Source: an uncultured Verrucomicrobiae bacterium
GTDB taxonomy: Bacteria > Chlamydiota > Chlamydiia > Chlamydiales > Rhabdochlamydiaceae
Length of the DNA stretch: 64,000 bases
Reading direction: 5' to 3'
Assembly (NCBI GenBank): GCA_963818965.1
Contig: CAWFUG010000001.1
Coordinates: 32,001 to 96,000 of the forward strand
In this document: positions 61,320 to 61,613 of the stretch, one piece after another
Layout: every line of letters starts with the position of its first letter
Position numbering within the stretch: position 1 is the first letter of the stretch
Made by a program: the position numbers and the translations under genes
The notes under the pieces: generated by a model
Database searches by the model: none
Seen by the model: only the letters and a program-made list of their open reading frames with translations
What the model was told of the DNA's origin: nothing

Positions 61320-61348
61320 TTTACAAAAAAGGACACTTTGGTTATAAT
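61320..61348 (+). promoter_or_regulatory. Sigma70/sigma66 promoter of the met leader / metNIQ operon
   Basis: TTTACA-17 bp-TATAAT ending 7 nt before ATG 61356. Confidence 0.75.
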
Positions 61349-61355
61349 TCAGTAC

Positions 61356-61439
61356 ATGAAAGACTTAATTTCCATTCTTCAGTCTCTTATGTCTCCTGGT
61401 CTCATGCGTGGCATGTCTATGCCCATGCGTGGCGCTTAG
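61356..61439 (+). CDS. Met-rich leader peptide (27 aa), putative attenuator of metNIQ
   Basis: Hand translation MKDLISILQSLMSPGLMRGMSMPMRGA; Met at positions 1, 12, 17, 20, 22, 24; upstream of a methionine ABC transporter. Confidence 0.8.
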   Translation: MKDLISILQSLMSPGLMRGMSMPMRGA

Positions 61440-61505
61440 GGGAATTCTCGGTTTTTTACCCATCTCCTAAGCGCTAGTTTCTAGAGAACAATCAACCTAG
61501 GAGAT
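61430..61505 (+). promoter_or_regulatory. Alternative RNA stems (anti-anti-SD / anti-SD / SD) of a putative translational attenuator
   Basis: 61430-61443 pairs with 61463-61476 (14 bp, 2 G-U); 61462-61469 ATCTCCTA alternatively pairs with TAGGAGAT 61498-61505. Confidence 0.75.
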
Positions 61506-61511
61506 TTTCAG

Positions 61512-61613
61512 ATGTGTCAAAAAATTATTTTAATCCCCTGTGCAAATGGGCTTCTGCGTTTTCGCCCTGTTGCAAATCGACTAAAAAATGGGGGCGGCGA
61601 TGAAAAAAATTGA
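61512..61613 (+). CDS. 33-aa small ORF overlapping the metN start
   Basis: AGGAGA 7 nt upstream; MCQKIILIPCANGLLRFRPVANRLKNGGGDEKN; stop overlaps the first codons of metN. Confidence 0.55.
   Translation: MCQKIILIPCANGLLRFRPVANRLKNGGGDEKN

Follow-up and report, generated by a model that had tools for sequence, protein, structure and literature searches.

A conserved leader with methionine codons, and candidate translational attenuator, upstream of methionine genes in chlamydiae

How might a chlamydial bacterium match its methionine import to the methionine supply? This question is raised by a 64,000-nt stretch of contig CAWFUG010000001.1 from an uncultured member of the Rhabdochlamydiaceae (positions 32,001 to 96,000; the whole stretch is hereafter called the window), in which a short open reading frame (ORF) with several methionine codons lies upstream of metNIQ, the genes of a methionine importer. 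Bacteria sense their methionine status via MetJ, S-adenosylmethionine (SAM) riboswitches, and T-boxes, and environmental chlamydiae rely on their hosts for amino acids; to our knowledge, very little is known about how amino-acid uptake is regulated in these organisms. An original prediction, made from the letters of the window, took the ORF to be the leader peptide of a methionine-sensing translational attenuator. We find that this leader recurs in chlamydial genomes upstream of two kinds of methionine genes, and it is very probably a cis-regulatory element specific to such genes. With a probability of about 0.6, it acts as a ribosome-mediated translational attenuator that senses methionine through the pausing of ribosomes at its AUG codons.

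Occurrence of the leader

In the window, a sigma-70/66-type promoter that matches 11 of 12 consensus positions (TTTACA at 61320-61325, a 17-nt spacer, and TATAAT at 61343-61348; forward strand, as are all features below) is followed, 7 nt 3' of the −10 box, by an ATG at 61356 that has no Shine-Dalgarno sequence (SD). A scan of 1.3 kb finds 3 promoter-like sites, compared with 1.4 ± 1.1 in shuffles. The ATG opens a leaderless upstream ORF, uORF1 (61356..61439; MKDLISILQSLMSPGLMRGMSMPMRGA), with 27 codons and a UAG stop (TAG, 61437-61439), and with internal ATGs at 61389, 61404, 61413, 61419, and 61425. The last two belong to an AUG-CCC-AUG core (61419..61427) that encodes Met(−6) and Met(−4), counted back from the stop, and that is found as AUG-YCC-AUG in all 18 leaders described below. 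A terminator scan calls no canonical terminator 3' of the leader or anywhere from 61356 to metN; its single intrinsic terminator-like site lies outside this interval, at 61020-61048. As such, the promoter, the 27-residue ORF with five internal Met codons, and the lack of a U-tailed terminator are all as the original prediction had described them. The RNA from 61356 to 61620 also folds better than 200 of 200 shuffled sequences (z = −3.19).

We searched for the leader in 129 genomes of the window's family and in 311 genomes sampled from other chlamydial families. It is present in 17 of the former and in 1 of the latter (G377), which gives 18 intact copies, 6 upstream of metN and 12 upstream of a homocysteine S-methyltransferase gene. 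A looser pattern run over the 129 family genomes matches 18 genomes, 17 of them real, and its reversed-pattern control matches none. Because the same element recurs in 18 genomes, its presence is beyond chance, and the position of all 18 intact copies 5' of genes for methionine import or synthesis is our strongest argument that the signal concerns methionine. Leaders specific to one amino acid are classically recognised by their presence 5' of different genes that supply it, here metN and the methyltransferase gene.

Copies upstream of metN are also found in relatives of the window. A DNA search of 41 related genomes yields one other match (82% identity), which spans only the end of uORF1 and the hairpin that follows it and comes from a different genus (G003). 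The metN gene is found in 51 of 121 family genomes (E ≤ 1e-60; upstream DNA obtained for 50), and the leader precedes it in 5 of the 51 (G000, G003, G318, G112, and, in a shortened form, G128); a sixth metN-type leader (G434) was found by pattern scans. The uORF is exactly 27 codons long in five of these genomes and 19 codons long in G128 (MNELFALHSVKTPMPMCGA), where the segment of a hairpin termed P1 below is missing. In all six, a −10-like hexamer in the printed sequences ends exactly 7 nt 5' of the uORF AUG. Codons 2-16 of the relatives share 18-28 of 45 nt with the window (40-62%), compared with 36-39 of 40 nt (90-98%) for codons 17-27, the stop, and 4 further nt, and the MetN proteins of leader-bearing relatives are only 66-75% identical to that of the window. 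A metagenome-assembled genome titled 'uncultured Acidobacteriota bacterium' (L092) is identical to the G434 locus (L125) over 3022/3022 nt, and this title disagrees with the placement of G434 in the window's chlamydial family.

The second type of copy is shorter, with uORFs of 16-17 codons (e.g. MSFLHSVFKSSMSMRSA or MSSLRGLFKYSMPMRRA), and is found in 11 family genomes upstream of a homocysteine S-methyltransferase gene (PF02574, E 1e-22 to 2e-23) rather than metN. All 11 methyltransferase genes found in the family carry it; in G357, leader and gene sit on two contigs whose printed ends overlap. The twelfth copy, from the genome outside the family (G377), is intact and also lies 5' of a homocysteine S-methyltransferase gene. 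A second copy in G377 (L154, C216) keeps the uORF and the 5' arm of the conserved hairpin and has its 3' arm cut off, followed by unrelated DNA and an ORF resembling those of insertion sequences. Among the 12 methyltransferase-type leaders, 7 have a −10-like hexamer 6 nt 5' of the uORF AUG in the printed sequences.

Wider pattern scans returned many lookalikes. A scan of the phylum for a 24-nt Met-cluster pattern (≤3 mismatches) matches 58 of 401 genomes, and only the matches in G000, G003, G318, and G112 are real; the reversed-pattern control matches 10 genomes, and the remaining loci were judged from printed frames only. Among the rejected candidates, recurrent 'MRRMSMRM..A*' matches (L026, L027, L029, and L030) are an antisense recA frame, another match (L003) lies inside a 753-codon ORF, and matches in G253 and G024 have neither uORF nor hairpin context. 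The antisense recA frame is itself well conserved and ends in ...MRRMSMRM(E/D)A, which mimics the Met-cluster pattern in searches. A global scan of genome contigs gives 19 loci, L092 among them, of which 4 are real, and one of metagenome contigs gives 21 loci, none of them real; both patterns needed TCTCC and ATGCC, which the G128 and methyltransferase-type variants would escape.

Conserved sequence and predicted pairing

Three features are invariant in the 18 leaders, i.e. AUG(−6), AUG(−4), and a UAG stop located inside the 5' arm of a hairpin. The last codons read YCU AUG YCC AUG CGW NGC RCU UAG in nearly all of them, with exceptions at codon −3 in G003 (CAU) and G128 (UGU); at the protein level, M(−6) and M(−4) are present in 18/18, R(−3) in 16/18, and A(−1) in 17/18. 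The frame is open in all 18. In the printed sequences, 13 leaders have a −10 box that lies 6-7 nt 5' of the AUG and would make the start leaderless, while the other 5 have a 5' untranslated region of 23-26 nt and a UAAGG-like SD. We argue that the uORF is translated, since its start is kept by two different means. An open frame and a fixed length, kept despite the low identity of codons 2-16, also support translation.

The window's leader contains two sequences that can pair with one SD, CUAGGAGAU (61497..61505, core GGAG at 61500-61503), which we take from sequence and fold, and from its equivalents in relatives, as the regulated site. In G003, G112, G128, and G434, the equivalent SD lies directly 5' of metN. 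The first anti-SD (tract A; GUCUCCUGG, 61391..61399) is located within uORF1, at codons 13-14 (Ser-Pro), and pairs with 61497-61505 in the minimum free energy (MFE) structure with a pair probability of 0.98. Its CUCCU is unchanged across the five 27-codon leaders. Next comes a CAUG-rich hairpin, P1 (61403-61414 with 61419-61431), a 12-bp stem in the MFE structure that contains Met codons −11, −8, −6, and −4 (61404, 61413, 61419, and 61425). Across five sequences, 95% of the P1 cells pair, with one C-G to U-A double change. P1 is absent from methyltransferase-type leaders and from G128, and for this reason we judge it not essential.

The hairpin P2 is formed by a 5' arm, B (61430..61443), which comprises the end of uORF1 with its UAG and a sequence that resembles an SD (UGGCGCUUAGGGGA), and a 3' arm, C (61463..61476), which includes anti-SD 2 (AUCUCCUA, 61462-61469). 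The helix is 14 bp long in the window, including 2 G-U pairs, and ATCTCCTA (61462-61469) is exactly complementary over 8 bp to TAGGAGAT (61498-61505). Both pairings had been put forward in the original prediction, and both are kept in all 18 leaders. Specifically, the B:C helix has 9-15 contiguous bp, and arm C is complementary to the SD over 5-10 bp (at least 8 bp in 11/18), typically UGCUCCUAAG versus CUUAGGAGUA in the methyltransferase type. P2 loops measure 11-25 nt, except for 194 nt in G423. By contrast, uORF2 (described below), the second anti-SD inside uORF1, and the P1 hairpin with its four Met codons are features that the prediction did not contain.

Structure models of the RNA without a ribosome place the SD in a closed state. 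All 18 leaders pair their SD core in these ensembles, and for 17 of them the chief partner is the pyrimidine tract that precedes Met(−6) in the uORF; P2 is part of the MFE structure in 16/18. As a control we shuffled the tract, which reduces the share of SD pairing that falls to it. In 9 of 16 leaders, no more than 1 of 40 shuffles attains the observed share, and in the other 7, 3-16 of 40 do; the control thus supports this pairing in part. RNAalifold, applied to 10 methyltransferase-type leaders, recovers both P2 (B:C) and the helix between tract and SD (A:D). Constraining the stop codon to stay unpaired moves arm C onto the SD in 5 of 5 leaders, the outcome that had been predicted for a ribosome at the stop.

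Two further observations concern P2 and its surroundings. In about 6 of the 12 methyltransferase-type leaders (e.g. L136, L138, and L141), inspection by eye suggests that the CAUGC of Met(−4) can base-pair with a GCAUG in the P2 loop; with GCGC-UUAG-GCGC added, the result is a local hairpin whose loop contains the stop, an alternative to P2 that would free arm C. Long palindromic inserts resembling miniature inverted-repeat transposable elements are also found in or beside leaders, i.e. L034 (G318), L123 (G423), L146/L134 (G357), L050 (G342), and L035 (G411), and they sit between P2 and SD in G318, in the P2 loop in G423, and between SD and start codon in G357.

An attenuation model and its alternatives

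How would such a leader respond to methionine? We propose that the transcript starts at, or a few bases 5' of, the uORF AUG, and that it carries in order tract A within the uORF, the Met codons (−6 and −4, and in the window's subtype also −11 and −8), a stop in the middle of B, then C, and finally the SD (D). With no ribosome on the uORF (state 1), A:D and B:C would both be paired, the SD closed, and expression OFF. When methionine is scarce (state 2), a ribosome would wait with AUG(−6), AUG(−4), or, in the 27-codon form, AUG(−11) in its A site; the paused ribosome would contain A, B:C would not yet be melted, and C would stay locked, leaving the SD free (ON). A ribosome usually unwinds mRNA to about +11 from its P site, and P2 would then still be largely intact at the Met pauses. 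When methionine is plentiful (state 3), a ribosome at the UAG would unwind B, and the freed C would pair with the SD (OFF), after which release of the ribosome would return the RNA to state 1. The two universal Met codons would thus be the last pause sites that cover the first anti-SD without freeing the second. The original prediction had also expected the SD to be exposed (ON) whenever ribosomes fail to initiate; this part needs correction, since the SD is predicted to pair with the CUCCU tract of the uORF in 17 of 18 ribosome-free models, and the resting state would therefore be OFF, not ON.

A number of findings weigh against this model. The universal Met codons number only two: the cluster expected in small ORFs of relatives is conserved at AUG(−6) and AUG(−4), while the other Met codons are not universal, since two of five leaders have Ile or Thr in place of Met(−8), and Met12 is not conserved. 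The methyltransferase-type leaders vary in their last seven codons at first codon positions only (entropy 0.51, 0.00, and 0.00 for the three positions), where the changes swap Ser and Pro at −5 and −7 and give G, S, R, or C at −2, and their N-terminal codons vary alike at the three positions (0.78, 0.70, and 0.70). Because the variation near the stop is at first positions only, the constraint appears to act at the RNA level. Selection would then be on the open frame, its AUG codons, and the sequence of the RNA, and not on the peptide as such; the AUGs could also have arisen as a by-product of the CAUG palindromes. Conserved, covarying stems had been anticipated as well; the helices are there in 18/18, but their covariation is not significant in the five 27-codon leaders, a set too small to give the test power, where 96.7% of cells pair, one double change is seen, and 256 of 500 shuffles score as high. 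In P2, a compensatory change is seen once (G161, G-C to A-U).

The remaining points against it come from modelling and from distribution. We modelled ribosome footprints thermodynamically, with a single ribosome, with a ribosome queue, and with two footprint sizes, and the opening of the SD is small throughout, with a median probability ≤0.003 at every ribosome position. It is highest between codons −10 and −3 and falls to 0.000 at −1 and at the stop; this modelled trend fits the proposal, and the values do not demonstrate an ON state. The leader is absent from 45 of the 51 sampled metN loci, including one in a genome of the window's own genus (G001). Of the 44 metN loci without the leader that were scanned, one (G426) has a small ORF that ends shortly after an MxM or MM, a pair of Met codons probably due to chance. 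Lastly, the window's SD lies 95 nt 5' of metN, which has a G-rich tract of its own at 61590-61599.

Given the conserved C-terminus, we asked whether the peptide could itself be the sensor. In such a mechanism, which we consider unlikely, a ribosome that has just made M-x-M-R-x-A would stall on the UAG, as in TnaC, when free methionine or SAM is bound in its exit tunnel, and the stalled ribosome would hold B open while C closes the SD. Its polarity fits, as the presence of the ligand means OFF; C pairs with D once the stop is occupied, in the 5 of 5 leaders mentioned above; and M(−6), M(−4), and UAG are universal, with R(−3) and A(−1) close to it. The interchange of Ser and Pro at −5 and −7 and the four residues tolerated at −2 are harder to reconcile with arrest, and invariant third positions with variable first ones are the opposite of what selection on a peptide produces. 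The N-terminal part, moreover, has no amino-acid constraint, and the UAG is already explained by pairing within B. If true, this would be the first Met-sensing ribosome arrest peptide and a counterpart of TnaC with biosynthetic polarity, and an RF1-specific stop would be involved. Nucleotide-level invariance of the core, third codon positions included, is also what an RNA-only SAM or methionine riboswitch would show, in which a junction of A:D, P1, and P2 binds the ligand and the ORF is incidental, and the SD-anti-SD expression platform would resemble those of SAM-III and SAM-VI. We regard this as more doubtful still. The start codon is kept at the transcription start site or given its own SD in 18/18, the frame is always open with its stop in B, P1 is dispensable, and the conserved structured core is just ~60 nt of simple helices. 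Rfam searches of the window (E ≤ 10) return only three snoRNA-like chance matches (9.8-13.6 bits), ten leader loci from other genomes have no match at E ≤ 0.05, SAM riboswitch and Met T-box models included, and the upstream regions of 20 metN genes without the leader match only microRNA-like or RUF4-like models, on long palindromes that resemble the inserts described above and make the microRNA matches spurious. A protein operator at the AAGCGCTT palindrome is also unlikely, given the variable spacing of its arms and its position at about +75.

Two other explanations keep the ribosome and change what it does. Classical transcription attenuation, with P2 as an intrinsic terminator governed by ribosome position, draws on the high G+C content of P2 and the moderately U-rich tract that follows it (AAUUUUUAA in G003 and G318, UAGUUUUC in G128 and G434). 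We see it as very improbable. The size of the P2 loops, which extends to the 194 nt of G423, speaks against a terminator, and P2 is not among the calls of the terminator scan; ribosomes halted at the Met codons would promote P2 and hence termination, which is the wrong polarity for uptake or synthesis genes, and 8-10 bp of complementarity between C and the SD would be left unexplained. Alternatively, any translation of the uORF might open the SD without specificity for methionine, with the Met codons arising from CAUG palindromes and the window's element, with an 88-nt spacer between its SD and metN, perhaps decaying. The SD is closed in all ribosome-free models, the AUGs sit in palindromic CAUGC/GCAUG pairings, and uORF2 and mobile palindromic inserts disrupt several leaders, all of which would suit such an opener. 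Yet every intact copy lies 5' of a methionine-acquisition gene, and these genes belong to two unrelated families; AUG(−6) and AUG(−4) also persist where P1 is missing (methyltransferase type) and where the P2 loop lacks a GCAUG (G361). A non-specific opener thus has little probability in our view. Taken as a whole, the original interpretation stands for the architecture of the leader and its link to methionine genes, and needs revision for its resting state, for the number of Met codons involved, and for the target of the SD.

The metNIQ locus of the window and related systems

The target of the SD had been taken to be metN itself. In the window, however, TAGGAGAT is followed by an ATG at 61512, 8 nt past the SD core and 6 nt past TAGGAGAT, which starts a second upstream ORF, uORF2 (61512..61613, 33 codons), and the SD is therefore not metN's own. 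The stop of uORF2 (61611-61613) falls 11 nt inside metN, whose ATG is at 61600. By eye, the first codons of uORF2 align with the metN start of G112 and G128, and the SD with ATG 61512 matches the site where ribosomes would bind to start metN in these two genomes; a stretch of 88 nt separates them from the conserved N-terminus of MetN, and uORF2 is thus out of frame. This suggests that uORF2 occupies what appears to be the ancestral metN ribosome-binding site, displaced by a duplication or insertion of 88 nt. The +1 frame offset is real and not an assembly error, since contigs of close strains (90-99% alike; three runs from three studies, X1, X3, and X4) that span 61517-61652 show substitutions and no indel. 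Because uORF2 ends 11 nt inside metN, we infer that metNIQ would be controlled here through translational coupling between termination of uORF2 and the start of metN; alternatively, the regulation of metNIQ in the window may be weakened.

The genes downstream are metN (61600-62358; NCBIfam TIGR02314, E 1.3e-102), metI (62348-63034; NF008049, 223 bits against a cutoff of 212), and metQ (63027-63812; NF008285, E 5e-62). The match of MetN covers only positions 2-242 of the 343-position profile, and the protein therefore lacks the C-terminal domain of longer MetN proteins. It has 252 residues; that of G434 is similar (a 255-codon ORF), and many family members have open frames of ~340-350 codons. 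Nine sequencing runs match the window, all of them DNA and at small shares (0.04-0.13), with no RNA run among them. Peat and soil are habitats of close strains.

How does the leader compare with known regulators? In the trp-type attenuators of Escherichia coli, four segments pair alternatively: a ribosome at the stop leads to 3:4 pairing (OFF), and an earlier stall leads to 2:3 pairing (ON). The chlamydial leader is similar in that regulatory codons are followed by alternative 2:3 and 3:4 pairings, and differs in that segment 4 is the SD instead of a U-run terminator and the stop codon is part of segment 2. SAM-III (SMK box) and SAM-VI riboswitches also control methionine-related genes through SD-anti-SD pairing; unlike them, the leader has no match to an Rfam SAM model, and a conserved, presumably translated ORF runs through the element.

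The closest parallel is with the leaderless poly-Cys small ORFs of mycobacteria, in which attenuation was shown experimentally and an RBS-sequestering mRNA structure is blocked by stalled ribosomes (RBS, ribosome-binding site; Canestrari et al., bioRxiv 10.1101/834739). As far as the available text of that study describes them, the two systems share a leaderless short ORF as first cistron with codons for the amino acid that the operon supplies, a single design at several loci (the authors' 'ribulon'), and an SD-sequestering structure that overlaps the site of the stalled ribosome, which for the chlamydial leader is predicted from sequence. On the same basis, the leader differs in its amino acid, Met instead of Cys, in its smaller cluster with two universal codons one codon apart, in a second, stop-spanning hairpin whose 3' arm is a spare anti-SD, and in its phylum, with no sequence similarity between the two. 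The logic of the leader is most likely that of this validated cysteine system, of which it would be the methionine counterpart.

Leader peptides with methionine codons have also been predicted elsewhere. In Streptomyces lividans TK24, a metL leader peptide was predicted 5' of metNIQ from a single-genome map of transcription start sites (PMC8079986). It resembles the chlamydial leader in being leaderless and short (29 amino acids), in having Met codons towards its C-terminus, in its place 5' of metN, and in downstream hairpins with no typical intrinsic terminator; the sequences have no evident relationship, and the available portion of that paper reports neither an SD-sequestering model nor conservation. 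Campylobacter jejuni has a Met-rich short ORF, MetL, 5' of metBA (PMC3847290), as well as CJsORF19, a small ORF rich in Met codons 5' of the gene for a methionine-transporter binding protein (bioRxiv 10.1101/2022.11.09.515450), and the translation of MetL is backed by initiation-site profiling (PMC3847290, bioRxiv 10.1101/2022.11.09.515450). These too are short Met-codon-rich ORFs 5' of methionine synthesis or uptake genes. By contrast, the C. jejuni ORFs are SD-led and, in the sections of these reports available to us, are proposed to be transcription attenuators, with RNAs that end just past the stop; their sequences are unrelated to the leader. In both genera the leader peptides are predictions, and the accessible parts of these sources do not show a response to methionine (PMC8079986, PMC3847290, bioRxiv 10.1101/2022.11.09.515450).

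A full-text search of the literature finds no such leader described in Chlamydiae, and the chlamydial attenuation papers that it lists concern trpRBA only. This search supports, for this phylum, the novelty that the original prediction had suggested subject to a literature check, while predicted Met leader peptides have, as far as these sources go, been published for Streptomyces and Campylobacter. On the sequences compared here, the leader would represent a new conserved sequence family, set apart by its stop-in-hairpin design and found in a phylum for which that search returned no control of this type. The stop sits in one arm of a hairpin and a spare anti-SD in the other, an arrangement that would keep the SD closed both before and after passage of the ribosome. 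The 18 leaders, with two subtypes and natural deletion and insertion variants, also provide a comparative set for methionine sensing. If our reading is true, Chlamydiota would have a conserved amino-acid-sensing cis-regulator that is common to an importer and a methionine-forming enzyme, i.e. a small 'Met ribulon'.

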